From: an uncultured Candidatus Saccharibacteria bacterium
GTDB lineage: Bacteria; Patescibacteriota; WWE3; UBA101185; UBA10185
Direction of reading: 5' to 3'
Assembly: GCA_964643995.1 (NCBI GenBank)
Contig: CAZXUJ010000001.1
Span: 5,622 to 69,621 of the forward strand
Length of the DNA: 64,000 nucleotides
The translations under genes and the position numbers were made by a program. Positions 14,916-39,808 of this stretch are shown here, in pieces. Within the stretch, counting starts at the first letter, position 1. Each line of letters begins with the position of its first letter. A model generated the notes under the pieces. It did no database searches and was not told the origin of the DNA. It was given only the letters and a program-made list of their open reading frames with translations.

Positions 14916-14990
14916 TGGAGCGAGAGACGGGGATCGAACCCGCGACCTCTTCCTTGGCAAGGAAGCGTTCTACCACTGAACTACTCTCGC
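14916..14990 (-). tRNA. tRNA-Gly (anticodon GCC)
   Basis: Reverse complement GCGAGAGTAGTTCAGTGGTAGAACGCTTCCTTGCCAAGGAAGAGGTCGCGGGTTCGATCCCCGTCTCTCGCTCCA; anticodon stem CTTCC/GGAAG, loop TTGCCAA. Confidence 0.85.
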
Positions 14991-15047
14991 GAGCAAAGCG
15001 AGTGAGAGGTAGTGATGTACTCATCACGTCACTCTCGCAATCAAGCT
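14991..15047 (-). promoter_or_regulatory. Conserved structured leader/upstream element of tRNA-Gly(GCC) (hairpin GTGATG-TACT-CATCAC)
   Basis: Immediately 5' of the tRNA on the minus strand. Homologous element at 39809-39868 upstream of tRNA-Gly(CCC) with a compensatory T:A to C:G change. Confidence 0.45.
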
Positions 15048-15753
15048 AACGTCTAATATACATTACCTTTAATCCACTATCAATCGCTTGACGGACTCTG
15101 CTACAATGCCAACTAATGGATTGTCCATGCCTGTAAGGTCTACAACAGTCATGTTCATCGAGACCTCTATTGGGAACTGCGCACGGCCACACCACCATTC
15201 AAACTTGATATATCAGAATCTGTCTACAACCCATCTCTTGAGCTTTTGTGTGAACTAGACTTAAAACAAAATATGGAGATATTACGTATTCTGACTACCT
15301 ACGAATGCATAACCAAAGTGTTTTAGTGCGTACTCTGTTTGTGCACCATGACTATGAAATTTTTCAAACTGCGGTTATGGAGCTACAACTAGATGCTTAT
15401 GTAAGCGAGGACATACAAGTGCAGCTCGGCTTTTTTCATGATGCGTAGCGTAGAGAGGATATTTTAACTCTCGATGATCCTGATACGATTCAGTAGCTGC
15501 TTGATGAATACACTAGTTTAGAGGATCCCTTATCTATCAATGAATTCAAAACCAAATATAGTAACCATATGTCATCTATAAGATTTATGCAAATATGTGC
15601 AACGAGGTATCCTAAGGAAAAATATCGTTCGCGAGATCCGAACTCTGGCGAGACTCTTGAATACTCACATGAACATCACCAGAACACACCAATATCCATG
15701 TCTGAAATGCTTGCGATATTTGCTTTCCCCTACATTTTAAATACAATTAATTC

Positions 15754-17028
15754 GTGAGTGTAAACTTCCATCCCATTAGTGAAAAGATAAAAAAATCCTT
15801 ACTTGATGAAATTTTTATGAAGAGTCTTAAGAATCTTCACGTTTCACTTTTTACCTTTAGGGGGGCAGGAAAACCCTATGAACTACAATATATCCTAGAA
15901 AAGGAAAAAGAGTTTTTTAAACCTGATAGAGTATTTGTTTGGATTGATTTACGTTATATTTTTAATCAAGCTTTTCTTAGTCAAGCCTGCCATGTATATA
16001 CCTTTTCTAGCGAGATTAAGCTACCTGGTAAATTCGATGCATGGGAACAATATCTAGCATTCTTTCACGATGAGTATGTTGCAAAAGGCTACAACATTAC
16101 ATTTGTATTTCAAGGTATGCGTTTATGCTATTCATTAGGGTATGATCCTGTACCATATGTCAGTGTTATCTCAACATTGTTGAGACTAAATCCTGATAAA
16201 TGCTCTGGAATATTTCTAGTTGATAAAGAACTTGATAACAAAACAAAAAACACATTGCTAGATATTTATCAAAGCATGCTTCACGATATTGTATGGGGTG
16301 GGACAGTTCTGTTTGACATTGAGTCAGCCAAGTATTTGTTTGATCAAAACTCTAGTATTGTAACTGAGGTAAGATTCACTGAAGAGTTTAAAACAGCGCT
16401 TACAGAAATGTGCATAGGTGATCCTAATGCTACCAAACATTTTATAATGAAAGTTTATGCGGAGCCGACCTTACAAGAAAAATTTGTAGCGGGGGACAGC
16501 AGTGCTAGATTTGATTTGTTTGATTCTGTATGGCTAAACACAAGGTTTGAGGATATCCTAGACAATCTCACATTTGCATCAAAACATTTCCTTCTGACAC
16601 AAGAGGGCACACCATCTGAATTCTTACTTAAAACAGGCTTGGTATCTGAAATGCCCATAGCGCACGGATATAAAGTTATGAGTAAGCTTTTTGAGCTATG
16701 GCTCAATCACAACAAGAGCAGGTTACTCGCTCCTGTAGAACAAACAATCACTCAAATAACTTCAAATGATAATAAGGCAATTGGAACAAAAATTAATGAT
16801 GCATTAACTGCACAAGAACTACTTGTCTTTGAATATCTACAAAAACACTATAGTGAACTTGTGACGAAGGATAGTTTAGCACAAGTGATATGGGGTAATG
16901 ATTGGGAAGAAAACTATAGTGACTGGGCACTAGATAAATTGACATCTAATCTTAGAAAAAAGCTGAAGGAAACTAATGCTCCATTTAACTTAAAGTCTTC
17001 AAAAGGTAAAGGCGTTGTACTGATATAA
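15754..17028 (+). CDS. Putative transcriptional regulator: C-terminal OmpR/PhoB-type winged-helix DNA-binding domain, novel N-terminal domain
   Basis: C-terminus LLVFEYLQKHYSELVTKDSLAQVIWGNDW...LDKLTSNLRKKLKE...KGKGVVLI matches the Trans_reg_C pattern. No receiver domain. N-terminal ~300 aa unassigned (FTFRGAGKPYE is a possible P-loop-like segment). Confidence 0.5.
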   Translation: MSVNFHPISEKIKKSLLDEIFMKSLKNLHVSLFTFRGAGKPYELQYILEKEKEFFKPDRVFVWIDLRYIFNQAFLSQACHVYTFSSEIKLPGKFDAWEQYLAFFHDEYVAKGYNITFVFQGMRLCYSLGYDPVPYVSVISTLLRLNPDKCSGIFLVDKELDNKTKNTLLDIYQSMLHDIVWGGTVLFDIESAKYLFDQNSSIVTEVRFTEEFKTALTEMCIGDPNATKHFIMKVYAEPTLQEKFVAGDSSARFDLFDSVWLNTRFEDILDNLTFASKHFLLTQEGTPSEFLLKTGLVSEMPIAHGYKVMSKLFELWLNHNKSRLLAPVEQTITQITSNDNKAIGTKINDALTAQELLVFEYLQKHYSELVTKDSLAQVIWGNDWEENYSDWALDKLTSNLRKKLKETNAPFNLKSSKGKGVVLI

Positions 17029-17140
17029 ATGAAAACAGGCTAGTCAACATCTCAAAATAAATAATATCCTGGCGGGGATAGAATGATATTTTGGTTAGTC
17101 TTCTAGCCTGTAAGTTCTCGTTAAACGAGTCTACTGTTAG

Positions 17141-18085
17141 CTACCTACTTACAACGTCTTCCGGGAGAGGTACATAGGTTGTACCAATGCTTCCAATACC
17201 CTCAATTGCGATGTAAGCGTTTTCACGTGGAATTGTCATGTAGCGCCCGGAATCACCTTCGCTGACAATTGAAATTCCCTCACGATGAGTCGCTACATCT
17301 AAGCAACTGGCGCCTTCGCCACATCCTGAGGAACCTACATAAAAACTTACCCCTGCGCGCTCAAAACTTGCAAAACCCGATTTGTAGTTCGCGCTTTCAA
17401 GCCAAAGCCAATCACCGGTGTAGGTGATGGTGAAGAAGTACCTCTCTTGGTTTCTTTCTCCCTCACTTGGGAATGTTTCAACCAAAAGCTCTATGATCGA
17501 GAAAACCGGCAATTCAACGAAGAATCTTCTGCCTGATGCAACCACGTAATTGTCAATGGTCGCATCATAGAGCGTTAAGTCAGCATTAGCAGTCAAGGTC
17601 ACATCGAGTAAAAAGGTCCCCTCGTCGAGGCCAAACTCCAAACCAGCGGGCAACCAGTTTTGCCCGATTTTGTTATCCAGATGGGCGTAAACTTCGATTT
17701 CACCCCACCGATAACCCCCATTAGGTAAACCGTTATGCAAGTACTGCTCCCAGCTGACTCTGATAGTTTCCTCGTCTAGGCTGGACAAGCGCAAACCATT
17801 TTGCGTCTCCTCCCACTGTGTGTAAACTTCAACATCACAGGTTTGGTGCTCGTAAGGAACTTGATCCCCATCACCCTTAATTTGAACTACACAGGGTGTG
17901 CTGGTAGGCGTTTCGGTTGGGGTATTGGTTGGCGTGCTTGTCGGCGTTTCGGTAGGGGTATTGGTTGGTGTGCTTGTCGGCGTTTCGGTTGGGGTATTGG
18001 TTGGTGTTTGAACACTCTCAGGACAGCCGCAGGCACTGAAAAACAATACCATAAATACAAAACTAATAACCAATTTCTTAGACAT
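17141..18085 (-). CDS. Lipoprotein/secreted protein with Thr-Pro tandem-repeat linker
   Basis: Signal peptide plus Cys (LFFSACGC); PTNTPTETPTSTP x3 encoded by a 36-bp tandem repeat; globular C-terminal domain unknown. Confidence 0.6.
   Translation of the reverse strand: MSKKLVISFVFMVLFFSACGCPESVQTPTNTPTETPTSTPTNTPTETPTSTPTNTPTETPTSTPCVVQIKGDGDQVPYEHQTCDVEVYTQWEETQNGLRLSSLDEETIRVSWEQYLHNGLPNGGYRWGEIEVYAHLDNKIGQNWLPAGLEFGLDEGTFLLDVTLTANADLTLYDATIDNYVVASGRRFFVELPVFSIIELLVETFPSEGERNQERYFFTITYTGDWLWLESANYKSGFASFERAGVSFYVGSSGCGEGASCLDVATHREGISIVSEGDSGRYMTIPRENAYIAIEGIGSIGTTYVPLPEDVVSR
17895..18010. repeat. 36-bp tandem repeat x ~3.2 (ggtgtgcttgtcggcgtttcggttggggtattggtt), in-frame within CDS 17141-18085
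   Basis: Three near-identical consecutive 36-mers seen directly; encode TPTSTPTNTPTE units on the minus strand. Confidence 0.85.
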
Positions 18086-18581
18086 GTTTTTGTCCTCCGT
18101 ATTGACTGTTGATAAGGATTAGTATTAGCTTCTCCGCCAAGAAGCTAAAGTAACCGCGCTGAATACAAATTATGTATTGTACTCAAAACGGTTACTTCAA
18201 CATAGCGGAACAGCTTAGCTAACAGTAGGTTTTCAATGTTCAGAAACCTTGTTTGCAACAAAATTTCTGACCCCATTTTATACTATAGGTTGTCTGTAGC
18301 TTGAAGTATCTTGAGCCAACCTGACATATTCTGACTAGCGTTTTTTGCTTTAGTTATAAATGAAATTTAAGGTTTATGGAGCACCAGTCGAGTCTGGAAA
18401 CCCACAAGCAAATTATACTCTCCAGGCTAGAAATGAGACAAATAAGACACTATAAAAAAGGGAATGGTTCTATAATTCTCTAGGTTATGCAATTTTGCCG
18501 AGAATCGTTTGGTTAATAGTTTTGTATATAGTATTTAAGCCTCGTCAGTACGTTGTAGCCAGTGATATAATCGCAATTGAA

Positions 18582-20402
18582 ATGAAGTTAACTACCGTTA
18601 AAATAGAAAATTTTAGATCCATAAAAGATCCCATAGAGGTTTACATCGAGGACACTACCACTATTTTTTTAGGTGCTAACGACCACGGCAAAAGCAACTT
18701 GCTCTATGCGATTCAGAAATTAAACGCTGACAAGCCTATTTTAGAAGAAGAACGAAATTGGGATGTGCCTCAAAGTGTAGGTGAGCCACGAATTGAGTGG
18801 TCATTTTCTTTGTCGAATGAAGATAAGGATAGTTTAACAAAGATGTGTGTTCCTGCCGTTGTTAAAGTAGCTGAGAATAAAGATGGTGTGGAGGCTCAGT
18901 CTGCAGAAGTATTGGATGCCACGGTTTATTTAAAAACTAATTCTTTAGGGACACTGACTTTTGAACGTTTGGGAGTCAATACTCCGATTAAGGTGATAAG
19001 CGTTCCTGATGAGTTTGAAATACCCAATTTAGAAGAAAATGAGAGCAAGTTAGTTGCAATGATACCGAATGTGGAGCTTTTTGAATCTCCAGAAATTAAG
19101 GTTATCGATAGTATAACTAGGGAAGAATTGGATAAAAGTGACTTTATGCAGGGTATATTCATGTTGGCAGGAATTTGGGACCAAAAGGATGAGGTGTTTA
19201 ATCAAAATCCCAAAACTGAAAAAATGCTATCCCAAGCTTCTGATAAATTAACCAAGGAGTTAAGGAATACCTGGCAACAAGGATCCAAACTAGAATGGAG
19301 GTTTTCCCACCTTAGAGAGGAAAACCGTATTGGAATAACCATTGGGGATCCTGCTGTTAGCACTACTTTTGTCAAGCCTTCGTTAAGATCGTCTGGTTTT
19401 AAAACATTCTTTTACATTTCAATGACGATTGATGCCCGTTCCAGAAAAAATAATAATGGTCATTTTATATTTATGTTTGATGAGCCAGGTACATATCTTC
19501 ATCCAGCCGCGCAAATAGATTTACAACGTAGCTTTGAAAAGATTGCGGAAAAAAATCAAATTATATATACAACTCACTCCATATTTCTGATAAGTAAAAA
19601 CTACCCGAAGCGAAATAGAGTGGTCTTAAAAACTGATAATGGCACCAAAGTTGATCAGAAGCCTTTTAGAAAGAATTGGAAAGCCGTTAGAGAGTCCCTA
19701 GGTGTTTTATTAAGCAATAACTTTTTAATAGCAGACAAGACTTTATTAGTAGAGGGACCTTCGGACATCGTTTATATTTGGTTAGCGTTGCGAAAACTTA
19801 AAGATGCTGGAAAGGTAGATATAGATTTAAACGATATAAATATGGTAGATGCTAATGATAAAAGAAATTATATCTTAATGGCGAAGTTGATGTTAACCGA
19901 GGGTAGAAAGGTTACTGCATTAGTGGATGGTGACGATGGAGGTAAAAGTATTCAGGATGATTTAAAGAAGCTATGTGGTGGAGAGTTGAAAAGTAAAGAC
20001 CTCAAGCCGTTCATTTTGGAAAGCAATAAATCTATAGAAAATGTTTTGGCGGATGTAGACACATTAAAGATTGCGGCAAAACAAGTCGCTACAGAGCTTG
20101 TGGGCGCTGGGTTACTTGCATATAAATCTGGTGTGGCTATTGATACTGCGGTTAACGATATTAAGGAGGATTCCAGTGTGACGTTAGGTAAGACCCTAGA
20201 AAATGTTACAGGTACATGGTTTGAAAACGAGCAATCTTTATCAAAATTGCAGGTAGCAATGAAGTATGAGGACATTGTTCTTAGTGGTGGCGGAAACATA
20301 AACGAACGTTCCGCGGAAACATGGTTTAAGAGACTTCAAAAAGAGATGGAACTACGTAGTGAAAAAGAGCCAGAAAGCGGAGTTATAGATCAAATAGATT
20401 AG
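18582..20402 (+). CDS. OLD-family (overcoming lysogenization defect) ATP-dependent nuclease: N-terminal ABC-type ATPase + C-terminal TOPRIM
   Basis: MKLTTVKIENFRSIKDP...FLGANDHGKSNLLYAI (OLD N-terminus/Walker A); FMFDEPGTYLHPAAQ...IIYTTHS (Walker B, H-loop); C-term LLVEGPSDIVYIW (TOPRIM). Start set to Met at 18582; ORF extends to 18495. Confidence 0.8.
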   Translation: MKLTTVKIENFRSIKDPIEVYIEDTTTIFLGANDHGKSNLLYAIQKLNADKPILEEERNWDVPQSVGEPRIEWSFSLSNEDKDSLTKMCVPAVVKVAENKDGVEAQSAEVLDATVYLKTNSLGTLTFERLGVNTPIKVISVPDEFEIPNLEENESKLVAMIPNVELFESPEIKVIDSITREELDKSDFMQGIFMLAGIWDQKDEVFNQNPKTEKMLSQASDKLTKELRNTWQQGSKLEWRFSHLREENRIGITIGDPAVSTTFVKPSLRSSGFKTFFYISMTIDARSRKNNNGHFIFMFDEPGTYLHPAAQIDLQRSFEKIAEKNQIIYTTHSIFLISKNYPKRNRVVLKTDNGTKVDQKPFRKNWKAVRESLGVLLSNNFLIADKTLLVEGPSDIVYIWLALRKLKDAGKVDIDLNDINMVDANDKRNYILMAKLMLTEGRKVTALVDGDDGGKSIQDDLKKLCGGELKSKDLKPFILESNKSIENVLADVDTLKIAAKQVATELVGAGLLAYKSGVAIDTAVNDIKEDSSVTLGKTLENVTGTWFENEQSLSKLQVAMKYEDIVLSGGGNINERSAETWFKRLQKEMELRSEKEPESGVIDQID

Positions 20403-20449: not shown

Positions 20450-22231
20450 TTACTTTCTATTTTCCTCATTTTTCTTTACACTCAACATTAAACTTTTCTT
20501 TTCATCTGACCAGTACAGTTTTATATCCTTCTCTTTTTTAGGCGGATACTTTTCTAAAAAATCTTTGTTCTCGGCTACCATAAAAACCTTACAATATATG
20601 GAACCTTTAATATCTTTCAGCTGCCTTGCTTTTAAAAACCCTTGTCTAACAAGTTTATCCCTAGTAGATGGATGTACACTATAGTCCGACTGTATCTGCC
20701 AATCTGATATCCACTGGCCTTCATTACTATAAACATGTTTTAGATCATGCGGTATAACGCCTTCCTTAATATTTCTCCAACAATCAGCACATCTAATACC
20801 GTCAAGATTCCACCACATTTTGTCGCCTGCGAAGGATCTTCCGCATATTCCACAGGTATAGCTTCCACCATCAGATACCTCAAGGAAGAAACCCTCGGGC
20901 TCTTTTTCCAATCTTCGCTTACGAATATTTTCTATGGCATCAAACTTTCCCATATGCCTTGCCAGTTGCACAATATTGTTTAGTTCCAAATGTGATCTTT
21001 TATTAGGGTCGCTAATTGGGTTTGGTTCTTCCTTAATTTTCCCAGTTATCGTTATTAAATCTTCCTCACGCTCGTAGCCTTTAAGTTTTCCGGATATAAA
21101 TCCAAGCCTATTTGATAAACCCTCTGGCATTAACCGCCAATTAGTTTTTTCAAGTGTATCTTTAATGAGTTTTTGAAGATCATACATGCTTACACGCTTA
21201 TTCCTCTGAGTTTCAGTTTCCTGAAATGAAAACGGAACAATTACAAACTGACCCATCTCAGGTTTATCGAGTGAAAATTTAACATAGCCTTGTTTTTCAA
21301 AAAGGGGAGTTAGGAGCTTTTCAAGTTCTCCGATTCCAAGCTTTTTAATTTTGGAAACCTGCTCATAAACTGGATTATCGTATTTACGCATCTCATCGTC
21401 ATGCGCAAACTTGGAATATTCCAATGCTTCTAATATTTCGAGGTTTTCTTGACCCTGTTTATCATCAAGGCAGTATTCCGCACGGTATTTTTCCAAAAGC
21501 GCTTTGTTTTCAGCTTCTTCTTTCGCCCGTTCTTCATCTTTTTTACTAAAATCATCTACGTCAATATCTTTATAACCGCAGGAAGCACATTTGGTAGTCC
21601 ATGTAATGACTTTATCCTTAACTTTAGTTGTGACTTTTACTTCTTTACCGCATTTAGGGCAAAGATTTGGTTTTGGAACATAAACTTCTCCGTTATCATA
21701 AATAGCTTGGCGTTTCTTACAGGCAGAACAGTCAAACATGAAACAAACCCGCATCGGGGTATCCGTATAATCCTCAAGGACTTTAGAACTGTAGCTCATT
21801 TGAGTGTTGCATTTTGGGCATATAACATTTTTTGGTTCTGTCGCGTTATCGTAATAATCCTGCTTGGCTTTATCCTCAGCCATTATTTTCTCAATAAAAT
21901 CCTTTTTTCTTTTATATTCGTTTGTTTTAACTACAAATAAATGCCTGCCTAAAATAAGGCCAAAATCATGTTCTTTTTTCTCATCTGTTAAGGATTTAAG
22001 TTCGGGATCGTTAAAGTGTTCTTTGTATGCTTTTCGCCAAAATTCTATTGTGCGTAGACATTCGCGTATGGTTGAGAGGTCGTATATATCTATGTAGTAT
22101 TGCTCGGGTTTTAGATATTCCACTAAAAACAATATACTACTTTCTAATGTGAGTAGAATATTCACGATTTTCTTATAAAAAACTCGTGTTATTCTGGTAA
22201 TATAAGTTAAGATGACAAAATCAGAAGACAT
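20450..22231 (-). CDS. Large multi-zinc-ribbon protein, unknown function (start uncertain)
   Basis: At least three C-x2-C...C-x2-C pairs (CPKCNTQM...CSACKK; CPKCGKE...CASCGY; CGICGRS...CADCWRN). Convergent with OLD gene, divergent from MTase. First ATG would overlap the MTase start by 20 bp, so the true start may be an internal Met (e.g. ~21883) or a non-ATG start. Confidence 0.45.
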   Translation of the reverse strand: MSSDFVILTYITRITRVFYKKIVNILLTLESSILFLVEYLKPEQYYIDIYDLSTIRECLRTIEFWRKAYKEHFNDPELKSLTDEKKEHDFGLILGRHLFVVKTNEYKRKKDFIEKIMAEDKAKQDYYDNATEPKNVICPKCNTQMSYSSKVLEDYTDTPMRVCFMFDCSACKKRQAIYDNGEVYVPKPNLCPKCGKEVKVTTKVKDKVITWTTKCASCGYKDIDVDDFSKKDEERAKEEAENKALLEKYRAEYCLDDKQGQENLEILEALEYSKFAHDDEMRKYDNPVYEQVSKIKKLGIGELEKLLTPLFEKQGYVKFSLDKPEMGQFVIVPFSFQETETQRNKRVSMYDLQKLIKDTLEKTNWRLMPEGLSNRLGFISGKLKGYEREEDLITITGKIKEEPNPISDPNKRSHLELNNIVQLARHMGKFDAIENIRKRRLEKEPEGFFLEVSDGGSYTCGICGRSFAGDKMWWNLDGIRCADCWRNIKEGVIPHDLKHVYSNEGQWISDWQIQSDYSVHPSTRDKLVRQGFLKARQLKDIKGSIYCKVFMVAENKDFLEKYPPKKEKDIKLYWSDEKKSLMLSVKKNEENRK

Positions 22232-23057
22232 TAAAATTAATCAAATAATTCTTGGGGATTGCATAACAGGTATGGAAAAACTACCTGATAGGTCAGTTGA
22301 CTTAGTGATTGCTGATCCCCCTTACAATGTATCAAAAGGTAACAAATGGAAGTGGGATAACAGCGTTAAATTACAGGGATTTGGTGGAAATTGGAATAAA
22401 ACCATGGAAGATTGGGACAACATGTCACTTCAAGATTATTGGAGTTTCACTGAAGCTTGGTTAAATCAGGTTTGTAGAGTGTTGAAACCCTCGGGGTCTC
22501 TTTGGGTATATGGAACTTATCACAATATTGGAATAATTAATGTAATTATGCAGAAGCTGGGGGTCGAAATGTTAAATGAAATAATATGGTTTAAACGAAA
22601 TTCATTTCCTAATTTATCGGGCAGACGATTTACTGCCAGTCATGAAAATTTGATTTGGGCCCACGTCGGTGGAAAAAAGCGACAGTACTATTTTGATTAC
22701 AAGAAAATAAAGGAAATGCAATTTCCTGAAGACAAGATAAAAACTCCAGGAAAACAGATGAGAACTGTATGGGACATACCAAATAACAAGGAGGCTTCGG
22801 AATTGAAATTTGGAAAACATCCTACCCAGAAGCCGTTGCGTTTATGTAGAAGAATTTTATTAGCAACAAGCAGGCCATCAGACTTGATATTGGTCCCATT
22901 CTGCGGTTCTGGAAGTGAATGTGTTGCCGCAAAAATGCTTGATAGGAACTTTATAAGCTTCGAAGTAGATCAGAAATATGTTGATATCGCTAATAAGCGT
23001 ATTGAGAATACTGATGTTAAAGCAAATTTATTTAATCTTTCTTTGGATACTCTATGA
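22212..23057 (+). CDS. DNA amino-methyltransferase, beta-class (N4-cytosine or N6-adenine)
   Basis: Motif IV LVIADPPYNV precedes motif I ILVPFCGSGSECVAAK (beta-class order). Confidence 0.8.
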   Translation: MTKSEDIKINQIILGDCITGMEKLPDRSVDLVIADPPYNVSKGNKWKWDNSVKLQGFGGNWNKTMEDWDNMSLQDYWSFTEAWLNQVCRVLKPSGSLWVYGTYHNIGIINVIMQKLGVEMLNEIIWFKRNSFPNLSGRRFTASHENLIWAHVGGKKRQYYFDYKKIKEMQFPEDKIKTPGKQMRTVWDIPNNKEASELKFGKHPTQKPLRLCRRILLATSRPSDLILVPFCGSGSECVAAKMLDRNFISFEVDQKYVDIANKRIENTDVKANLFNLSLDTL

Positions 23058-30557: not shown

Positions 30558-30607
30558 GAGAACTGGTGCGTAAGTATATACTTACGCACTATCTTAAGAT
30601 ATTTTAA

Positions 30608-30931
30608 TCAGCAACAAATCTTAAGTAGATTAATGTATCTTGTTAAACCGTCGGATTTCTTTCCGTAAGTTCGGAATAACTGCATCACGTTTTTTAGTAT
30701 TTCCTGTAAGTATTTCTTTTCCTCATTAGTAATATCGGAATTATTGAAAAGTTTAGTTCTTAGCGATATTAATTGCTCATTGCTATCTTGTTTCATACTC
30801 AAGATATGGTCTAGGTATGTCGCTACGTCAGTATTCGTAACAGTATCTTTTAAAAATAACATATCTATCTGATCTAGTTGTGTGTTCATATGCCTATTAT
30901 AACGTAAGTCAGCTATATGTGTTGTAACCAC
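30608..30931 (-). CDS. Hypothetical small protein (107 aa)
   Basis: ORF only. Confidence 0.3.
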   Translation of the reverse strand: MVTTHIADLRYNRHMNTQLDQIDMLFLKDTVTNTDVATYLDHILSMKQDSNEQLISLRTKLFNNSDITNEEKKYLQEILKNVMQLFRTYGKKSDGLTRYINLLKICC

Positions 30932-30978
30932 GCCACTCTTACTCTAACAAGATTCTTACCTTTTGGTATAATACCTCT

Positions 30979-32322: not shown

Positions 32323-32327
32323 TTACT

Positions 32328-33194
32328 ATGAGAAAAGTAGTCAAAACAGACGCTGAACTAATTTTTGACACTGACAAGGTGTATAAACGGTTTACCACGT
32401 CCTCTGTAGATACAAACGTATTAAACGATCTAATTAGACTAGATAAACAGGCAAATCCAATTCCACATTTTTTGGGAATTTTACCTTATTTGGATACACC
32501 TTTTTGTAGTGAGGCTCTACCCGATGATACTCAAATATTAGTAATGGCTTATTTGCCTGAGCAGTACTTTCTAACAAAAATTACTGAAAGGGGTGAGTTG
32601 ACAGATACGATCTTGCAAAAAATGGCGCACGCCCTCTATAGCTTTCACTCAAAAATGACCATTGTTTCAGAATCTTTTGGAGGAAATTATCTTCTAAATA
32701 GATTTACAAAAGATAGGGAGTTAGTTGCAGACAAAGTAATATTGAATGCTGATGTAGCTTCATATCACAAAGGATTTACGAAAACACTTGATAGTAGCGT
32801 AGAAATTATCCAAAAAAGGTATCAAAATAACCGCTTAGTCGAAGGACATGGGGACTTGAATTTGGATCATATACATCTACAAAAAGACACTCTTACGTTT
32901 ATAGACTTTTCACACAATACAAAATATAGATTTGATGACGTTTCCCGAGATATCGCGGGCATTTATCTACATTTTATAGAACTTGGAAAAAAAGATTTTG
33001 CAACTGCTTTTCTGAGTGAGTATCGTAAGCTTAGTAACGACGCCGATCTTAATTTAATGGTAAATCTTCAAGTTGCTAAAAAGGTGTTAGTTAAGTATTT
33101 CATATACATAGGTGGATTTGATCCCAAACACTACGATGAAAAGATGCTTCAATCTGTTATTAACACTATAATCGACTTAGGAAACGTATACTAA
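32328..33194 (+). CDS. APH/choline-kinase-fold small-molecule kinase (candidate sugar or antibiotic kinase), paralog A
   Basis: Catalytic loop HGDLNLDHIHL and metal-binding FIDFSHN (HGDxxxxN...D motifs of the APH/ePK-like fold). Confidence 0.55.
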   Translation: MRKVVKTDAELIFDTDKVYKRFTTSSVDTNVLNDLIRLDKQANPIPHFLGILPYLDTPFCSEALPDDTQILVMAYLPEQYFLTKITERGELTDTILQKMAHALYSFHSKMTIVSESFGGNYLLNRFTKDRELVADKVILNADVASYHKGFTKTLDSSVEIIQKRYQNNRLVEGHGDLNLDHIHLQKDTLTFIDFSHNTKYRFDDVSRDIAGIYLHFIELGKKDFATAFLSEYRKLSNDADLNLMVNLQVAKKVLVKYFIYIGGFDPKHYDEKMLQSVINTIIDLGNVY

Positions 33195-33197
33195 ACT

Positions 33198-34253
33198 ATG
33201 CATATTTTAGAAATATCATCTTTACAGGAATTAACACCCCCAGAGGGTTATGGAGGTACAGAAAGATTTGTTCACTGGCTTTCAGAAGCTTTTGTAGAAA
33301 ATGGTAACCAGGTTAGTGTAATCTGCAAACAGGGATCCAAAGGTGGTACCTACCAAACAGTTTTCACAGAACAAGAGCAACTGACAGAAACTGTTAGGAA
33401 CTTTATTAAAAACAATGAGGTACAAATTATTCATGTAAATACTAAAGATAAATTCTTACTAAATTATTTAAAAACAACAAAGATTAAAGTAGTTATAACC
33501 CTTCACAATAATTTTAGGCGAACAAGTAGTTGGGTGGATTTAATAAAAGAAAACAATCCAAATTTTTACGTCACAACTATTAGTGAAAACTTAAAAAAGC
33601 GAGTTTTAGAAGCCCTTGAATTTAATTCTGTAACAATACCCACAAATGGAATTACTAATCTTGGCTTTGGTATGCCTATTACGAAAATAGTTAATAACGA
33701 AGATCCACAGTATTATTTATACCTAGGAGTGATGGCTAGATATAAAGGAGTTTTGGATATAGTAAAAGCTTTTTCTAATACAACCAAACAATTACTATTA
33801 GTTGGACCCTGTAACGACCCAAAGGAGAATGAGTATTTCAAGGAAATATTAGAATATACAAAACGTTATACAAATATTAAGTATTACGATGCTACAAAAG
33901 ATAATTCCGAAAAAGTGAATCTTATTAAAAGGGCAAAAGCTTTGATAGTGGCTACTGGATACGATCCTCTAGAAAGTGATTGCCACGAAGCTTTTGGACT
34001 TGTAATGCTTGAGGCAAATAATTTGGGTGTGCCCGTTATTGGTTTCGCAAAAGGGAATATAGAGGATTACATAGTAAACGGTGTTAACGGATATAAGTTT
34101 CAAGATATCAACCAGTTGCCTGAATTAGCCGATAAAGTTGAACAGAGTGACCTTAGTGAAAAGTGCATTGCTACTGCTGAAAAATATGATATCAATAAAA
34201 TCGCTACACAATATCTAAATTTCTTTACAAATATTCTTCAACAAAAGTATTAA
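33198..34253 (+). CDS. GT4-family glycosyltransferase
   Basis: EAFGLVMLEANNLGVPVIG (GT4 E-x7-E region). Confidence 0.68.
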   Translation: MHILEISSLQELTPPEGYGGTERFVHWLSEAFVENGNQVSVICKQGSKGGTYQTVFTEQEQLTETVRNFIKNNEVQIIHVNTKDKFLLNYLKTTKIKVVITLHNNFRRTSSWVDLIKENNPNFYVTTISENLKKRVLEALEFNSVTIPTNGITNLGFGMPITKIVNNEDPQYYLYLGVMARYKGVLDIVKAFSNTTKQLLLVGPCNDPKENEYFKEILEYTKRYTNIKYYDATKDNSEKVNLIKRAKALIVATGYDPLESDCHEAFGLVMLEANNLGVPVIGFAKGNIEDYIVNGVNGYKFQDINQLPELADKVEQSDLSEKCIATAEKYDINKIATQYLNFFTNILQQKY

Positions 34254-35079
34254 GCATACTCACGCTATTAGTTAATTTATCCTTATCGTAATGTACAACA
34301 TTGTACCCACCAGAATAGACAAAATATTTCATTAATACTCGTTTAGCTACTTGTAGTATTATAAGTTTTCTAATTAATTCATCAGACGTATATGCGAATA
34401 GTAATAAGTTGGAAAGCTTTTTAGAACCGCGCTGATACAAATCGAGGAAAAGAGTAGCGATATCCCTAGTCGGATCATCAGTTCGATATTTTTTTCTTAA
34501 GTAAAAGTCTATTAAACAAAAATTATCCCCTTCTTTAAAAAGATGTTCTAAGTTTACATCACCATGTATTTGTTTTATGTAACCCTTATTTGCTCTCTCA
34601 AGTATAAAGTCTCGAAGACTATTAAGTTCTTTGTCTATCTTTTCTAATATAGAGACTATGTTCTCATGCATATGAGGTAAGGTTCTAATACGAACGATAT
34701 CCTCCTTCATACGACTGTATAAATAGTCATTAGGTTGCTTATTATCAGTTGGGCATTTTGAATGAAAATTGTTTAGATACATACCTAATGGTTTTATTAT
34801 CTGTTCTAAATCATTTGTCTGTATAAGACAATCATCCTCATTTAATTTTCTCATAACCATAACGGGAGTGTTTGTGATATTAGGCCAAAAACCCTCAAAT
34901 TCTTTTGAAGTTTGCATTCTTAAAATAATAGGCTTTATGTTTGCTAAAGAGTCTAATAGGGGAATGTCAGTAAGGTCATCTTTCGTTACTTTGCCGTCTA
35001 AAATAAGCTTATAAACCTTATCTTTAGTAAAGACAATATCGACATCATCTTTGGTAATTCTTTTTAAAATTTCCTGCAT
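34225..35079 (-). CDS. APH-fold kinase, paralog B (inverted orientation relative to paralog A)
   Basis: IHGDVNLEHLF and LIDFY motifs; N- and C-termini alignable with 32328-33194 (DKVYK..., VAKRVLMKYFVYSGG vs VAKKVLVKYFIYIGG). Confidence 0.55.
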   Translation of the reverse strand: MQEILKRITKDDVDIVFTKDKVYKLILDGKVTKDDLTDIPLLDSLANIKPIILRMQTSKEFEGFWPNITNTPVMVMRKLNEDDCLIQTNDLEQIIKPLGMYLNNFHSKCPTDNKQPNDYLYSRMKEDIVRIRTLPHMHENIVSILEKIDKELNSLRDFILERANKGYIKQIHGDVNLEHLFKEGDNFCLIDFYLRKKYRTDDPTRDIATLFLDLYQRGSKKLSNLLLFAYTSDELIRKLIILQVAKRVLMKYFVYSGGYNVVHYDKDKLTNSVSMLNTFVEEYL

Positions 35080-36479
35080 TATCTAGGGTAATATGTACTA
35101 AAAATACGTTTCTTATCAAACTGTAAAACACTATTTCTGTTTTGTTCTTCATTAAATTGTTTTGGTAATTCTGTATAGTTAATTGAATTATTCTTATTAC
35201 AGTAGGAAAGATGTCCTCCTCTTTCAAACTGAGTAATCACTGTACAACCACAAGCTAGTGCTTCAAGTGGTGCTAACCCAAAAGGTTCTGTCCATTCGGG
35301 TTTTTCTAATCCAGCAAGGAAAATAAAGTATTTGTAGTCGTTTAGCACCTTAACTTTTTCTTGATCCCCTATTTCTCCCATTAATCTAGCCTTAGGATAG
35401 TTTTTCACTGCTGTCAGAAACGTATCTCCATACTCTTTTTCATTCTCACTAAAAATTATTGGACCGTAAAAATCTATTCCTAGATTGTATTTCTTTGCAT
35501 ATTCCAAGCAGGCTAGTGGGGATTTATGTTGTCCGATAGCTCCTATATACACGATATCTTTATCTCTATTGGTTTTATTTAGTGAGTATAAAGAAAAATC
35601 TATGCAGTTAGGTTTTATTTCATACCCAATACCTAAATTATTGAAATATTGTGTCTGCTGATCCCCTGATAACACAAAACATTCGCATCTTTTCAAATCC
35701 TTCAAATAAGCTAACTTTTCAGAGTAGTTGTTTTCAAGTATTACAAATACACGTCTCCCACATTTATCGAGTCTTTGGATTAAATCTTTCCCATAAGTAT
35801 ATGTGATGATCAGTCTGTAGTTTCCTAAATCAACATCCGCTAAATCTTCCAGACTAAAAGTGTGGTAATCAGAACCAACTTTTGATGCTATATCAACTTC
35901 ATAACCTAAATCCTTATAGTACTCGTACGCTAGTGCAGCCATACGTTCTCTACCACCATATAACTTAGGTGGTACACATATCGAATCGGGGGCTATTATC
36001 AAAACCTTCTTACTTAATGATTTTATATTTGTATCAAAAAAAGCAGGTATTTCTTTGTTTTCAAAATACTTTAATAGAGCGTTTTTGGATTCTACAGGTG
36101 TGATATTCAGATCTTTTAATTGGCTTATATCCACCCACATTGGAAAATATTGCTCATTTTCATTCATGTGTTCCTTTTCGGGGCCACCAAGCTCTAATTC
36201 GCCAGAGATATAGTTACATGAAAATACAAAATTTAAACGGGATTCCGTATCCAAATAGTAAATTAAGCGGTCTACAACAGCTTCTACATTAAATTCTTCT
36301 TTTATTTCACGCTTACAGGTTTCTTCTAGTGTTTCGCCATCTTCCCAATGTCCACCGGGAAGGGTATAGAAGACTTCTCCTTTAAGCACTTGCTTCATAA
36401 GAAGAAGTCTTCCATTGTCTATTACAACACCCGTTGACCTGAAACCGCGAGGTCTGTTTTTTAGAATAACTTTTTTCAT
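35079..36479 (-). CDS. Fusion: N-terminal Nudix hydrolase + C-terminal GT4 glycosyltransferase
   Basis: Nudix box GGHWEDGETLEETCKREIKEEFNVE; GT4 region EPFGLAPLEALACGCTVIT. Confidence 0.65.
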   Translation of the reverse strand: MKKVILKNRPRGFRSTGVVIDNGRLLLMKQVLKGEVFYTLPGGHWEDGETLEETCKREIKEEFNVEAVVDRLIYYLDTESRLNFVFSCNYISGELELGGPEKEHMNENEQYFPMWVDISQLKDLNITPVESKNALLKYFENKEIPAFFDTNIKSLSKKVLIIAPDSICVPPKLYGGRERMAALAYEYYKDLGYEVDIASKVGSDYHTFSLEDLADVDLGNYRLIITYTYGKDLIQRLDKCGRRVFVILENNYSEKLAYLKDLKRCECFVLSGDQQTQYFNNLGIGYEIKPNCIDFSLYSLNKTNRDKDIVYIGAIGQHKSPLACLEYAKKYNLGIDFYGPIIFSENEKEYGDTFLTAVKNYPKARLMGEIGDQEKVKVLNDYKYFIFLAGLEKPEWTEPFGLAPLEALACGCTVITQFERGGHLSYCNKNNSINYTELPKQFNEEQNRNSVLQFDKKRIFSTYYPR

Positions 36480-36480
36480 A

Positions 36481-37176
36481 CTAAATCATCCGTTGAGCAA
36501 ACAGTAAACCGTGACTTTCCAGCTCAGCTATGCTCTCAGGACTATGTACAAGGTTATCACGTACAGTGCCTTTTTTAAAGGGAATGTAGGTTTTAGCTGC
36601 AAATCTAAATACCCTTTTCAGATACGCAACTTGGCGCATTAAAATCTCCTCACTGACTTTGTGATTCCTTACAGTGAGCACTGTATATAACCCTGAGTTA
36701 TTCCTGCGAACTCCCTCGAGGAATGAAACTTGGTCAGGTGCCGTTTTTCTTGGTTCATCAAAGAAACCTACGAAGTCGGGATACACGACTTCAAAGAATA
36801 CTTGATCGTCGTGTGCTACCTTGGCTACAGCTTTTTGATGCTGAGTTACTCCGTAGCTTTGAAGGTATGCGATGAATACACCACCAAGAATAGTGCATCC
36901 ATATTTCCACGCCATCCCTTCCGCATCTCGTAACGGTACTGTTCCGTAGCGAACAGGTGGGCAATGTACAGGATATTTGGAATCAACAGAGTTGGTTCCT
37001 GTAACAGTGCCAGGTATGAAATTGTTCAAGAAAACCAGCATTTCAGAGATCGTGCTCTTGCTGGGCTCAAACATACCATCCCTGATGCGATAAATGCTTA
37101 AACCGCAACGCTCTGCAGCGTAGGGCTTAAGCACAACAAATGGTGCCTTTCCGCTTGCCAGCGTTTTTCGGTTCAT
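36481..37176 (-). CDS. Hypothetical protein with noticeably higher GC and different codon usage than neighbours
   Basis: 231-aa ORF. GC-ending codons are frequent (estimated by eye as mid-40s % GC against a mid-30s background). No family recognised. Confidence 0.4.
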   Translation of the reverse strand: MNRKTLASGKAPFVVLKPYAAERCGLSIYRIRDGMFEPSKSTISEMLVFLNNFIPGTVTGTNSVDSKYPVHCPPVRYGTVPLRDAEGMAWKYGCTILGGVFIAYLQSYGVTQHQKAVAKVAHDDQVFFEVVYPDFVGFFDEPRKTAPDQVSFLEGVRRNNSGLYTVLTVRNHKVSEEILMRQVAYLKRVFRFAAKTYIPFKKGTVRDNLVHSPESIAELESHGLLFAQRMI

Positions 37177-37259
37177 CTTTCTCTCCTTAGCTTAGATTTG
37201 GCGTCATTATAGCATTTATGTGGATATAAGGTATGATTTTGACTTTATAACTTGGATGC

Positions 37260-37279
37260 GTCATCAATGTGTTGATGAC
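37260..37279. promoter_or_regulatory. Perfect 8-4-8 palindrome GTCATCAA-TGTG-TTGATGAC overlapping the serine recombinase start codon
   Basis: Seen directly; position suggests an operator or recombinase-binding site. Confidence 0.4.
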
Positions 37280-38579
37280 AGAACAAGAAAATAAAAATCT
37301 AAAGTATTGTCTCTATGCTAGAAAATCTACTGAAAGTGATGAACGACAAGCAATGTCAATAGATTCCCAAATCAAAGAAATGATGGAACAGGCTAACAAA
37401 GAAGGTCTGAATATTGTTGAAATTCGCCAAGAAAGCCATTCCGCTAAACTTTCAGGGGCTAGGCCAGTGTTTAAACAATTGATCTATGACATAGATAAAG
37501 GATTATTCAATGCAATTCTTACTTGGGCACCAGACAGACTAAGTAGAAACGCAGGAGATTTGGGGGCTTTAGTTGATTTAATGGATCGTAAACAACTTTT
37601 GCACATCAAAACCTATTCCCAGACATTTTCCAACAATCCAAACGAAAAGTTTCTTCTTATGATTCTTTGTTCTCAGGCTAAGCTTGAAAATGATCACAGA
37701 GGTGAAAATGTTAAACGGGGTATTAGAGCAAAATGTGAACGAGGTTGGAGACCCTGCATGTCTCCACTTGGTTATCATAATAGAACGATAAATGGAGTTA
37801 ACGATCTTGTATTAGATGAGGTTAAAGCTCCCATCTTACGGGAAATGTTTGAATTGGTTGCATACTGTGGGTTTAGCGGGCGCTCTGTTAAAAGATATTT
37901 AGATAAGGAAAAGAACTTTCTATCAAGACGGGGCAAAAAGTTAGCGCTTGGGAGACTTTACGAAATTCTTAAAAATCCATTTTACTGTGGGGATTTTGAA
38001 TATCCTGTTGGAAGTGGAAACTGGTACAAAGGAAAACACGAACCCCTAATAACCAGAGAACTATTCAACAAAGTACAAGAAAAGCTGGCCACTTCTGATA
38101 AACCAAATTCAGAAAAACATGACTTTCCGTTCACACGAACAATAAGATGTTCAACCTGCGGATCGCACCTTACGGGAGAGGAAAGAACAAAGCAATTAAA
38201 GAATGGAAACAGAGTTAAGTATGTTTATTATCACTGTCTGCGTGGCAAGGACAAAGACTTTGACTGCAAGGAACCCTATATCCGTGAGGATGACCTGGTA
38301 ACACAATTAGTTGAAATTATTAACGAGGTGGAAATCGATAAGGATGCTTTTACTAAACTTTTACAGGAGGAATATACAAGGTTTGCAAAATTTAAAGCTA
38401 TTTTAAACGAAGATTCTCAAAATAATGAAGAAAAGCAAAGGCTAAAAGAAATTGATATTAAAACTTTTGCAAAACACATTTTAAGATTCGGATCTAATCA
38501 GGAAAGAAGGGAAATCTTTACATTAATTAAGCAACCACTTTATCTTAAGAACATGAAACTGTATGTACACATTAACTAG
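37269..38579 (+). CDS. Large serine recombinase (resolvase/invertase catalytic domain + recombinase domain + zinc ribbon)
   Basis: YARKSTESDERQAMSIDSQ (catalytic Ser region), RLSRN, Cys cluster CSTCGSH...YYHC. Annotated start is GTG; alternative ATG at 37275. Confidence 0.8.
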   Translation: MLMTEQENKNLKYCLYARKSTESDERQAMSIDSQIKEMMEQANKEGLNIVEIRQESHSAKLSGARPVFKQLIYDIDKGLFNAILTWAPDRLSRNAGDLGALVDLMDRKQLLHIKTYSQTFSNNPNEKFLLMILCSQAKLENDHRGENVKRGIRAKCERGWRPCMSPLGYHNRTINGVNDLVLDEVKAPILREMFELVAYCGFSGRSVKRYLDKEKNFLSRRGKKLALGRLYEILKNPFYCGDFEYPVGSGNWYKGKHEPLITRELFNKVQEKLATSDKPNSEKHDFPFTRTIRCSTCGSHLTGEERTKQLKNGNRVKYVYYHCLRGKDKDFDCKEPYIREDDLVTQLVEIINEVEIDKDAFTKLLQEEYTRFAKFKAILNEDSQNNEEKQRLKEIDIKTFAKHILRFGSNQERREIFTLIKQPLYLKNMKLYVHIN

Positions 38580-39513
38580 TTTTTAACTCTTTTAATAGGA
38601 ATTTTACCCAATCATGATACCAGTACCAATTTTTACCTACATAATTTCCGTAACCTTTTACAGGATCTTTAGCGTTATGTTTTCTCCATAAGTCCGTATG
38701 TGTACTAATCGATATGTTTATTCCTTTTATTTTAAGTTCGTTTATAACCTCTCTAGCTAAAAATAACTTTTCTTTTTTTTCTTTTATAACCACATATTCT
38801 TTACTAATGTTTTTAGCTAACGGTGAGTTAGGGTCAATAAATTCGATAACTCTATCTGCTTGACCCGATCTGTTCGCTGATACCTTTGTAAATAACAGTC
38901 TATATGCGAATCTCTCGTTTTTTAATTCTTCTGACTCCAGTTTGTCGTCAAATGCAGCTACATATGTTCTTATATTCTTGGATATCAATTTATCTTTGTT
39001 TTTGATTACTTGCATTTGGTCAAAATCTAATTCCGCGAATTGTAGGCTCAGCGCAAGATTATTATCCAGACCCTTTTTATCTCCATGAAGAAGCTTAAGA
39101 TAGAAGTTGTAGTTTAACGCGCATGCCTGATATCGTGCGGACATATAAGAATCAAGACCTTGCGCTTTTCTATGTTCAATCTGATTTCGTAATCCTATCA
39201 AAAACTGTAAATTATTTTTTGTATTTTTGTCCAATGGGCTCGCTGTATTGGAAACGCACTCCTGTAGATCCCAGTATTTTATACTTCCATCAGGATTCTT
39301 AATGTACCTTTTTCTATTTCCTTTTCCAGTATGGTATCTATATTCAATAGCGTGTTCTTTGTAGTAAGCGTGAAGTAAATAAGTCCATGCAATCATAGCT
39401 AAAACAATGAATGATTCAGACTTAAACATTATTAATGGGTTATTATATATCTGCACTGCAGATAACATAGCTTCCCGTGATTTATCAATTAGGTCAATTT
39501 TTTCTGCACGCAT
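38572..39513 (-). CDS. Hypothetical protein (313 aa), convergent with serine recombinase
   Basis: ORF only; its 3' end overlaps the recombinase 3' end by 8 bp. Confidence 0.4.
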   Translation of the reverse strand: MRAEKIDLIDKSREAMLSAVQIYNNPLIMFKSESFIVLAMIAWTYLLHAYYKEHAIEYRYHTGKGNRKRYIKNPDGSIKYWDLQECVSNTASPLDKNTKNNLQFLIGLRNQIEHRKAQGLDSYMSARYQACALNYNFYLKLLHGDKKGLDNNLALSLQFAELDFDQMQVIKNKDKLISKNIRTYVAAFDDKLESEELKNERFAYRLLFTKVSANRSGQADRVIEFIDPNSPLAKNISKEYVVIKEKKEKLFLAREVINELKIKGINISISTHTDLWRKHNAKDPVKGYGNYVGKNWYWYHDWVKFLLKELKTS

Positions 39514-39733
39514 ATTTTATATAAACCCCTAGTATGGATTATATCAAGCAACAACAAGTATTTTGGAACGGTCGGAACTTTGGACATAACCTAGGGTCAG
39601 ACGAGTCTGTAAATAGCAAATATTTTTGCTAAAAACGGCAGTAAAAGTATGATAATTTATGGTAACCCAAACGAGTCAGTTGGAACTTCAAGCAAAAACC
39701 TAGGGAGACGGAACGGTCGGAACTTCAAACATC

Positions 39734-39808
39734 TGGAGCGAGGAACGGGGTTCGAACCCGCGACCTCTTCCTTGGGAAGGAAGCATTCTACCACTGAACT
39801 ATCCTCGC
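39734..39808 (-). tRNA. tRNA-Gly (anticodon CCC)
   Basis: Reverse complement GCGAGGATAGTTCAGTGGTAGAATGCTTCCTTCCCAAGGAAGAGGTCGCGGGTTCGAACCCCGTTCCTCGCTCCA; loop TTCCCAA; differs from tRNA-Gly(GCC) at a handful of positions. Confidence 0.85.

Follow-up and report, generated by a model that had tools for sequence, protein, structure and literature searches.

The 64,000-nt stretch of DNA analyzed here (hereafter the window), from an uncultured Candidatus Saccharibacteria bacterium, contains two tRNA-Gly genes with 20 open reading frames (ORFs) between them. Conserved end sequences, a six-base core and the gene of a large serine recombinase (LSR) lie within this interval, and we consider it likely that positions 18377-39739 (~21.4 kb) form one integrative mobile element, belonging to a Saccharibacteria-wide family and inserted by the LSR at the 3' end of tRNA-Gly. 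Loci and contigs fetched from other genomes and metagenomes for comparison carry L-numbers. The features that frame the locus are as follows.

14916-14990, minus strand: tRNA-Gly(GCC), intact, ending GCTCCA (ARAGORN and Rfam, 72 bits)
15046-18376: region outside the LSR element, with 700 nt of non-coding DNA and two proteins
18377-18382: attL core TGGAGC, the left crossover region
18383-18458: S, the conserved left end (P' arm), starting ACCAGTCGAGTCTGGAAACCC; 82 nt when counted with the core (18377-18458)
37269-38579, plus strand: LSR (integrase) with Resolvase, Recombinase and Zn_ribbon_recom domains
39540-39733: R, the conserved right end (P arm), 194 nt, abutting the tRNA
39734-39739: attR core TGGAGC, tRNA positions 71-76 (GCUCCA)
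39734-39808, minus strand: tRNA-Gly(CCC), intact (ARAGORN and Rfam, 69 bits), read here as the occupied attB

A first-pass annotation of this DNA had described two same-strand tRNA-Gly genes, ~90% alike, that enclosed a winged helix-turn-helix (wHTH) regulator, a repeat protein, an OLD nuclease, restriction-modification (RM) genes, phage packaging genes, a glycosylation cluster and a serine recombinase between housekeeping flanks. ARAGORN and Rfam bore out the tRNA pair, which is 91% identical over 75 nt on the same strand, and domain, defense and PHROGs searches matched the gene list. The flanks were likewise found to hold ordinary chromosomal genes (Dus, ABC-F, PMT_2, PGM, NDH2 and a MacB/ABC transporter) and six more tRNAs. 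Tetranucleotide usage, the compositional check proposed at the time, differs from the flanks at 18-37 kb (z = 2 to 8) and reaches z = 8.3 in the glycosyltransferase cluster, where GC content drops to 32-34%; the deviation is much smaller in the first 3 kb past tRNA-Gly(GCC).

Ends, core and recombinase of the element

The TGGAGC found at both junctions is the reverse complement of the tRNA 3' end GCUCCA. S is ~90% identical to copies in L107, L117-L120 and L123, where it is preceded by R or by unrelated DNA, and the final ~75 nt of R are nearly invariant in alignments across genomes. What follows R is either the body of a tRNA-Gly gene or S; in the window S sits 21 kb to the left of R, and in L107 and related loci the two are contiguous. 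Four kinds of junction were encountered. R-TGGAGC-tRNA occurs beside five tRNA-Gly sequences (CCC in the window; GCC in L107, L121 and L124; UCC in L119; CCC in L122; and CCC in L128), and the attP-like arrangement R-TGGAGC-S occurs in L107-L118, L120 and L123. Unrelated DNA (x) joined to S as x-TGGAGC-S was seen in the window, L118, L119 and L120, and x-core-tRNA was seen in L002, in which tRNA-Gly(CCC) is followed by unrelated DNA without R. All four switch within one and the same hexamer (TGGAGC, plus strand), which matches the attR, attP, attL and attB pattern that a site-specific recombinase with a six-base exchange would leave. The exact 25-mer GGTCGGAACTTCAAACATCTGGAGC, spanning the end of R and the core, recurs in seven JGI metagenome stretches.

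Some units share merely the last ~40 nt of R, giving a conserved arm of ~35-40 nt, and S is conserved over ~22 nt next to the core; together with the core, these arms give an attP of ~60 bp, a length typical of the sites of serine integrases. All tRNA-Gly genes examined end in GCTCCA, the six other tRNAs of the window end in CACCA or GCCA, and U73 with an encoded CCA is peculiar to tRNA-Gly genes in these genomes. This restriction of the GCUCCA end to tRNA-Gly fits a specificity for the glycine isoacceptors GCC, CCC and UCC.

Exactly one S and one R are present in the window and no extra copies of either were found there; the element is thus a single unit, and the mobile unit is 18377-39739. 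No internal 3' fragment of tRNA-Gly was found in the segment beyond the 6-nt core at 18377, with up to three mismatches allowed, and the tRNA 3' end has no distal direct repeat of at least 15 nt, TGGAGC alone being repeated. Insertion at the 3' side left tRNA-Gly(CCC) intact. For R, RNA folding was not significant (z = 0.16) and Rfam matched nothing besides the tRNA; scans of R and S for consensus promoters and terminators stayed at chance level. The circle junction predicted from the two ends (39733 joined to 18383) reads GGTCGGAACTTCAAACATC-TGGAGC-ACCAGTCGAGTCTGG, and the predicted restored x-tRNA site reads AAATTTAAGGTTTA-TGGAGC-GAGGAACGGGGTTCG.

R also contains three copies of a motif of the type GGAACTT(C/T)(A/G)A(A/G)CA (39565-39587, ~39679-39699 and 39710-39732), the distal copy preceding CAGACGAGTCTG, which resembles the start of S. 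By its sequence, R may hold a fossil att junction or accessory recombinase-binding sites. At the other end, the repeat-protein and OLD genes diverge, and a 22-nt inverted repeat with 91% complementarity at their 5' ends (18052-18073 and 18509-18530) straddles attL and S.

The LSR ORF begins with GTG at 37269 (436 aa), a 100%-identical NCBI protein has 434 aa, and the start is probably the ATG two codons downstream (37275). Its best solved-structure matches are SPbeta SprA (YokA; 9.5e-14) and TP901-1 integrase, and the catalytic serine is conserved (YaRkS of the LSR aligned with YlRrS of SprA); judged by its domains and this alignment, the recombinase looks functional. No tyrosine integrase (Phage_integrase domain) was found among the 20 ORFs of the island. 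Homologues with 94-97% amino acid identity occur in many NCBI, JGI, ENA and Logan samples, and the LSR appears to be under purifying selection because homologues ~94% identical in amino acids are only ~82% identical in nucleotides. In all such loci the LSR is followed by one or a few variable convergent genes, then R, then the 3' end of a tRNA-Gly gene.

More distant LSR homologues (~50% identical) were met in two IMG/VR loci, L095 (5443-5515), 128 nt from the 3' end of a tRNA-Gln, and L097 (12988-13073), 1.7 kb from the 3' end of a tRNA-Ser. The junctions of these two loci could not be delimited; other tRNA ends may be targets within the wider LSR clade.

Relatives, horizontal spread and tandem arrays

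The HD-domain protein encoded beside tRNA-Gly(CCC) has three homologues in 5.8 billion proteins. One of them is 90% identical, and its contig (L002) follows the window collinearly between 42213 and 39734, at 92.9% nucleotide identity. This homology ends exactly at 39734, the 3' end of tRNA-Gly(CCC); beyond that point L002 carries genes absent from the window, which encode DUF1428, DUF1361 and a secreted 435-aa protein. The first-pass annotation had reasoned that an ancestral segment would show the same gene content in relatives; this 93%-identical contig instead carries unrelated genes past the tRNA.

Host core proteins have diverged widely among the loci that bear the LSR. DUF2207 is 38% identical in L107, and in L124, which retains the synteny of the right flank (two tRNA-Leu, tRNA-Lys, tRNA-Arg and MacB-MacB-ABC), MacB is ~50% and the ABC ATPase 68% identical. 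Set against 94-97% identity of the LSR, core identities of 38-68% indicate that the element moves horizontally. In L128 (NCBI GCA_964612565.1), 8,437 nt match window positions 30128-38564 at 95.9% identity and are followed by R, a different tRNA-Gly(CCC) and an unrelated flank. L127 also carries the low-GC module described below, at ~96% nucleotide identity, and homology with both loci begins at 30128; L127 is without 8 kb of RM and terminase genes, and L127 and L128 both differ from the window in the gene that fills the DUF3644 slot. Compared in this way, the element is a mosaic with exchanged parts.

Related contigs in IMG/VR have LSRs that are 47-54% identical, and that of L125 is 94% identical; these keep the genes for ParB-methylase, TerS, TerL and LSR, and several IMG/VR loci also keep a homologue of the 593-aa protein. 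Their cargo varies: type I RM and a ThsB-like TIR protein in L104, type IIG RM and an SNF2/PLD helicase in L106, GmrSD, DUF2779, a reverse transcriptase and a large helicase in L098, and type III-like RM in L125. The ORFs scanned in the related loci gave no hit to a capsid, portal or tail family. When TerL was used as a seed, relatives ~25% identical were found in the GenBank phage collection and in IMG/VR; a megablast search of plasmids and phages with the complete element as query found nothing. The lineage has been sampled sparsely: judged by PGM (phosphoglucomutase), the nearest GTDB genomes are Candidatus Saccharibacteria metagenome-assembled genomes with 50-60% identity and no synteny, and scans of GTDB genomes and JGI metagenomes with the HD-domain protein yielded no relative. 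L087, considered for a racemase-like left-flank protein (57% identical), was rejected as not syntenic.

Several relatives carry more than one unit. The contig represented by L108, L117 and L118 (the array was also retrieved as L107) has three tandem units, each running from S to R, at tRNA-Gly(GCC): two that include an LSR (7.7 and 6.1 kb) and, between them, one of 2.9 kb that lacks it and encodes Mrr and a 614-aa protein. L119 and L107 share the LSR-less unit that encodes the 614-aa protein (95.4% identity across 2,152 nt). It stands alone between tRNA-Gly(UCC) and tRNA-Cys in L119, with R and S at its ends, and forms the middle of the three-unit array at tRNA-Gly(GCC) in L107. In L120, tRNA-Gly(CCC) is followed by about six units of 0.6-1.7 kb, and 13.5 kb of this locus contain no LSR gene; the products of these units are thymidylate kinase and ThyX, a nucleotidyltransferase, DUF5680, a hydrolase and a methyltransferase. 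Across the relatives, LSR-less units span 0.6-2.9 kb. Recombinase-less units with the same sites in different genomes imply mobilization in trans.

Inside the L120 array (4540-4589), a partial 3' fragment of tRNA-Gly (cgaatcccgtcgcccGCTCCA) is joined to an R-like end; tandem duplication may have copied this apparent attR junction, or it may have been brought along from an earlier host.

Logan contigs of the same population (100% identity) end at 14963/14971 and 39772, inside the tRNA-Gly genes, at 38455 (the 3' end of the LSR) and at 39677 (inside R). This suggests that several variants of the element coexist in the sample, and the breaks would be an effect of shared mosaic sequences in a mixed population.

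Backbone, cargo and surrounding DNA

The genes and modules within the element, and the features of the DNA around it, are listed below.

15004-15045, minus strand: leader hairpin of tRNA-Gly(GCC) (-14.1 kcal/mol), paralogous to 39820-39861
15754-17028, plus strand: 424-aa protein with a C-terminal OmpR-type wHTH (Trans_reg_C, by domain search)
17141-18085, minus strand: 314-aa repeat protein with a 12-nt periodic repeat
18495-20402, plus strand: OLD-family nuclease (ATPase and TOPRIM), defense cargo (AAA_15 1.3e-26, OLD-like_TOPRIM; AriA 9.5e-29, Old 1.8e-26, GajA)
20450-22231, minus strand: 593-aa protein, a conserved backbone gene with homologues in related loci
22212-25855: type II RM module of three genes
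22212-23057, plus strand: N4/N6 methyltransferase (MTase_II PDLC03302)
23054-23911, plus strand: Dam-type methyltransferase (MTase_II PDLC03302)
23858-25855, minus strand: restriction enzyme (REase_II PDLC03434, 1.4e-130)
26073-29396, plus strand: phage-type packaging block
26073-27470, plus strand: ParB-N/methyltransferase of the packaging block
27467-27886, plus strand: TerS of the packaging block
27840-29396, plus strand: TerL (phrog_38, E = 1e-72)
29610-30557, plus strand: 315-aa backbone protein (75% amino acid identity to the L118 homologue)
30375-30596: T, a conserved module boundary (3' end of the 315-aa gene and 40 nt)
30608-37176: low-GC cargo module (107-aa ORF, two GT4, two paralogous kinase-like proteins, NUDIX-GT fusion, 231-aa ORF)
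38572-39513, minus strand: DUF3644 protein, PADLOC PDC-S19 candidate defense gene (5.1e-124)
39820-39861, minus strand: leader hairpin of tRNA-Gly(CCC), paralogous to 15004-15045

The backbone, comprising the 593-aa protein, ParB-methylase, TerS, TerL, the 315-aa protein and the LSR, is phage-derived, and cargo occupies variable slots. The block of ParB-methyltransferase, TerS, TerL and LSR is kept in eight loci (L094, L095, L096, L098, L101, L103, L105 and L125). Homologues of the 593-aa protein are 31-38% identical in L097, L098, L105 and L106 of IMG/VR, and 91 aa are present in L127 at 96% identity. Neither this protein nor the 315-aa protein matched anything in PDB sequences, Pfam, PHROGs or NCBIfam. 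In the PHROGs scan four ORFs had no match, and for most uncharacterized ORFs the matches in any library were at best marginal, to families of unknown function. No capsid, portal, tail or lysis genes were detected in the ORFs of 18377-39733 scanned with Pfam and PHROGs.

Both methyltransferases match PDLC03302 (7.8e-107 and 2e-65), and with the OLD/AriA-like nuclease, the type II RM module and PDC-S19 clustered in one element, the locus qualifies as a defense island. T is 85% identical to segments in L107-L117. The glycosyltransferase cluster is cargo between the 315-aa ORF and the LSR; the low-GC module that holds it is absent from the TerL-LSR slot of other family members (L096, L103 and L125). 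Three GT4 glycosyltransferases were counted in the segment between the tRNAs, and the module as listed holds two GT4 and the NUDIX-GT fusion. The slot between LSR and R is also variable, being filled by DUF3644 in the window, a 256-aa protein in L107, a 180-aa protein in L127 and L128, and HIT-M23-NUDIX in L124 and L125.

Within the low-GC module, two paralogues on opposite strands (32328-33194 and 34225-35079) are ~29% identical and have weak APH/kinase-like matches, and at 35079-36479 a NUDIX domain is fused to a GT1 domain. A NUDIX-only relative of this fusion (50% identical) is cargo beside R in L107, L124 and L125.

To the left of the element, the 424-aa wHTH protein belongs to a family with ~30 clusters of full-length homologues, the best representative being 34% identical. 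The periodic repeat of the 314-aa protein comprises at least seven overlapping copies at 17895-18007 and encodes a low-complexity tetrapeptide tract, with a local GC content of 41-42%. No counterpart of 15046-18376 was found in the fetched loci, nor does L002 carry this region past its tRNA. The stretch is not part of the element; it may have been inserted earlier or be resident DNA.

The tRNA-Gly(GCC) gene is an unrelated neighbor of the element and a second potential attB, which is empty here; its homologue is the occupied target in L107 and L124. Its TGGAGC core and T-arm context (14916-14921) are the same as at the occupied site. The 42-nt 5' leaders of both tRNA-Gly genes are also homologous (81%). 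The high identity of the pair is expected for isoacceptors and is no evidence of att duplication; the two are separate isoacceptor genes and not att duplicates.

The leader hairpin lies ~12 nt upstream of both tRNA-Gly genes and also occurs in L002 (2358-2405). Its 5' arm has the sequence of the 8 nt with which the following tRNA opens, the 5' acceptor strand (GCGAGAGT or GCGAGGAT), and the arm differences between the two leaders preserve pairing (GAGAG/CTCTC versus GAGGA/TCCTC; GTGATG/CATCAC versus GCGATG/CATCGC). It is absent at the six other tRNAs of the window and at tRNA-Gly of more distant Saccharibacteria. The hairpin could affect processing as an acceptor-stem mimic or minihelix, or be what remains of a decayed tRNA. 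An exact 19-nt direct repeat, ATCCTCGCAACAAAGTGAA (39801-39819 and 39847-39865), consists of the 5' end of tRNA-Gly(CCC) and 11 nt upstream, copied 46 nt further upstream, and its two copies bracket the leader hairpin of tRNA-Gly(CCC).

Mechanism, alternatives and known systems

With the ends, core, target, intact tRNA, recombinase domains, horizontal spread and arrays in relatives as described above, insertion would proceed as follows. The LSR would join an attP of ~60 bp (the end of R, TGGAGC and the start of S) to the 3' end of tRNA-Gly, which would serve as attB. Strand exchange would take place within GCUCCA at positions 71-76 (two acceptor bases, U73 and CCA), and because the exchange would fall inside this sequence the tRNA stays intact. 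The products in the window are attR (R-tRNA, 39733/39734) and attL (x-S, 18376/18377). Transfer would probably occur either by packaging with the element's own terminase into helper-phage capsids, as in satellites, or by natural transformation, competence being documented in Saccharibacteria (PMC10633639). Site-specific accretion, not homologous exchange via R and S, would build the arrays; for this the enzyme would have to be less selective than canonical LSRs. The present copy may still be active. We put at about even the chance that these loci amount to a Saccharibacteria cassette system on tRNA-Gly CCA ends, in which units of 0.6 to >20 kb with attP-like sites of ~60 bp are captured serially and LSR-less units are mobilized in trans by a terminase-bearing master element.

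Several observations weigh against a mobile, LSR-inserted element. The att sites have no clear dyad symmetry, no candidate recombination directionality factor was recognized, and neither an excised circle nor an empty site of the window's own element was seen. The flank x (up to 18376) differs from the sequence that L002 has beyond its tRNA; L002 therefore does not represent the window genome as it simply was before insertion, and judged by its sequence, it confirms the tRNA-side junction alone as an unoccupied site. Logan contigs do not span the R-tRNA junction of the window but break at 39677 and 39772. Gene content is what suggests satellite-type transfer; neither a helper phage nor a replication gene nor a pac site turned up, and the 593-aa and 315-aa proteins may themselves have structural or replication roles that divergence conceals. 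Canonical LSRs are not known to recombine attP with attL or attR, so array formation would go unexplained unless the enzyme were as permissive as Ccr.

The best surviving alternative, although improbable, is a hot spot of homologous recombination without current site-specific recombination, in which R, S and tRNA-Gly serve as anchors for module swaps. Natural competence (PMC10633639) would supply the process. R is conserved over 100-200 nt, exceeding what an LSR half-site needs, module boundaries coincide with conserved stretches (the 3' end of the LSR at 38564, R at 39570 and T at 30375-30596), and the Logan contigs break at shared stretches. Such swapping leaves unexplained, however, why the same six-base break recurs beside five tRNA-Gly sequences with unrelated downstream flanks and why some units share merely ~40 nt of R, and the sites come with an intact integrase that is under purifying selection. 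Within elements, cargo is probably shuffled by homologous exchange, which is not how the elements insert.

Slightly less probable still is a fixed, decayed prophage remnant, left by a temperate phage that had entered through its serine integrase, lost its structural genes and its mobility and received the defense and glycosylation genes later. TerS, TerL and ParB-methylase are indeed phage genes, TerL has ~25% identity with known phage terminases, genes for capsid, portal or tail were not detected, and composition is heterogeneous along the element. Yet eight related loci repeat the layout without structural genes around different cargo, both att junctions are intact, and an intact LSR keeps 94-97% identity between hosts whose core proteins are 38-68% alike. 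A second genome sharing 8.4 kb at 96% identity and LSR-less units with the same bounding sites in different genomes also speak for mobility rather than decay.

A mis-join of the metagenome assembly at repeated tRNA or att sequences is very unlikely: Logan assemblies of the same population do fragment the island and break inside both tRNA-Gly genes, but the left-flank protein and the LSR are both recorded on one NCBI contig of 403,258 nt, and the R-tRNA-Gly architecture is independently reproduced in at least five other assemblies. Scarcely credible is the classical tRNA-targeted island of the first-pass annotation, spanning the whole 24.7 kb with the two tRNA-Gly genes as att repeats, since, for all their common orientation, 91% identity and common leader, both tRNAs are complete with different anticodons, there is no tyrosine integrase and no internal tRNA fragment, the conserved ends map to 18377 and 39733, and L119 has tandem tRNA-Gly genes 72 nt apart with no island between them.

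The extent given in that annotation, 14990-39734, is accordingly replaced by 18377-39739, as defined by conserved ends common to elements elsewhere, and tRNA-Gly(GCC) drops out as a boundary, being a separate intact gene with its own leader and no tRNA repeat inside the segment. Its suggestion of a tRNA-targeted island or a composite holds in that acquired DNA sits at a tRNA and is mosaic within one att-bounded unit, and fails in the bracketing by two tRNAs; its view of all the intervening DNA as accessory applies to the element, and the left 3.3 kb may instead be resident DNA.

Genomes of Saccharibacteria and other Patescibacteria measure ~1 Mb or less and their gene acquisition is poorly understood; the locus points to a defined and apparently widespread route. 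Along it, a serine integrase acting at the invariant GCUCCA end would move defense and surface-glycan genes between distant hosts and build arrays of small units, and strain-level variation in defense, and possibly in the cell surface, is likely concentrated at tRNA-Gly sites in these epibionts. The target range of serine integrases would be extended to tRNA ends. The integrase and attP are also a candidate pair for the engineering of Saccharibacteria, where tools are scarce (PMC10633639), and, if borne out, would be a ready integration tool for genomes with a tRNA-Gly of matching 3' end. The cassette system, if real, would be a functional counterpart of integrons and staphylococcal cassette chromosome (SCC) arrays in ultrasmall epibiotic bacteria.

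No published description of this element family was found in the searchable literature. As a tRNA-associated island the element is ordinary; what sets it apart is a serine integrase acting on a tRNA end, a terminase backbone without detected structural genes, recent spread among distant Saccharibacteria and SCC-like arrays in relatives. It differs from an intact prophage in having no detected capsid, portal, tail or lysis modules. Phage satellites (phage-inducible chromosomal islands and P4-like elements) are closer, with sizes of ~10-20 kb, an integrase, packaging genes of their own, no virion genes detected and slots filled with defense genes. Unlike these, however, the element has both TerS and TerL and a serine rather than a tyrosine integrase, and no helper phage, replication or repressor/derepression module was identified for it, so that satellite behavior would be by analogy.

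Phage serine integrases (SPbeta SprA, TP901-1, phiC31 and Bxb1) share the LSR's domain architecture, SprA and TP901-1 integrase aligning with it through the catalytic serine, and they likewise use short att sites with few shared core bases; here the bases brought by the element restore the target gene. The known targets of characterized serine integrases are protein-coding genes or intergenic sites; integration at tRNA genes is typical of tyrosine integrases. The element differs in that its attB is a tRNA 3' end, used in several isoacceptors, and in that no directionality factor was found.

The arrays resemble the cis-mobilizable elements (CIMEs) beside ICESt1 and ICESt3 of Streptococcus thermophilus and integron arrays, in which recombinase-less, att-flanked units accumulate in tandem and need a neighbor's recombinase, and the small single-gene units of L120 look like integron cassettes. 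CIMEs and integrons use tyrosine recombinases, and integron cassettes have a folded single-stranded attC and a dedicated attI with a promoter. In contrast, the sites of the element are double-stranded and attP-like, and its anchor is a tRNA.

In SCC and SCCmec of staphylococci, as proposed here, a serine recombinase inserts DNA at the 3' end of a conserved housekeeping gene (rlmH) without inactivating it, tandem arrays and recombinase-less units are bounded by the same short att repeats, and cargo is rich in defense genes. The target of the element is the CCA end of tRNA-Gly, however, and not rlmH, it has one LSR instead of a ccrAB pair or ccrC, the likeness drawn here being one of organization, and it has a terminase backbone and an ultrasmall Saccharibacteria host in which it is known from sequence. 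Ccr is reported to mobilize tandem, defense-bearing SCC-like cassettes at rlmH, their excision being stimulated by phage infection (PMC11470126). By analogy, these tandem SCC-like defense cassettes moved by Ccr are the closest documented parallel to the element arrays.

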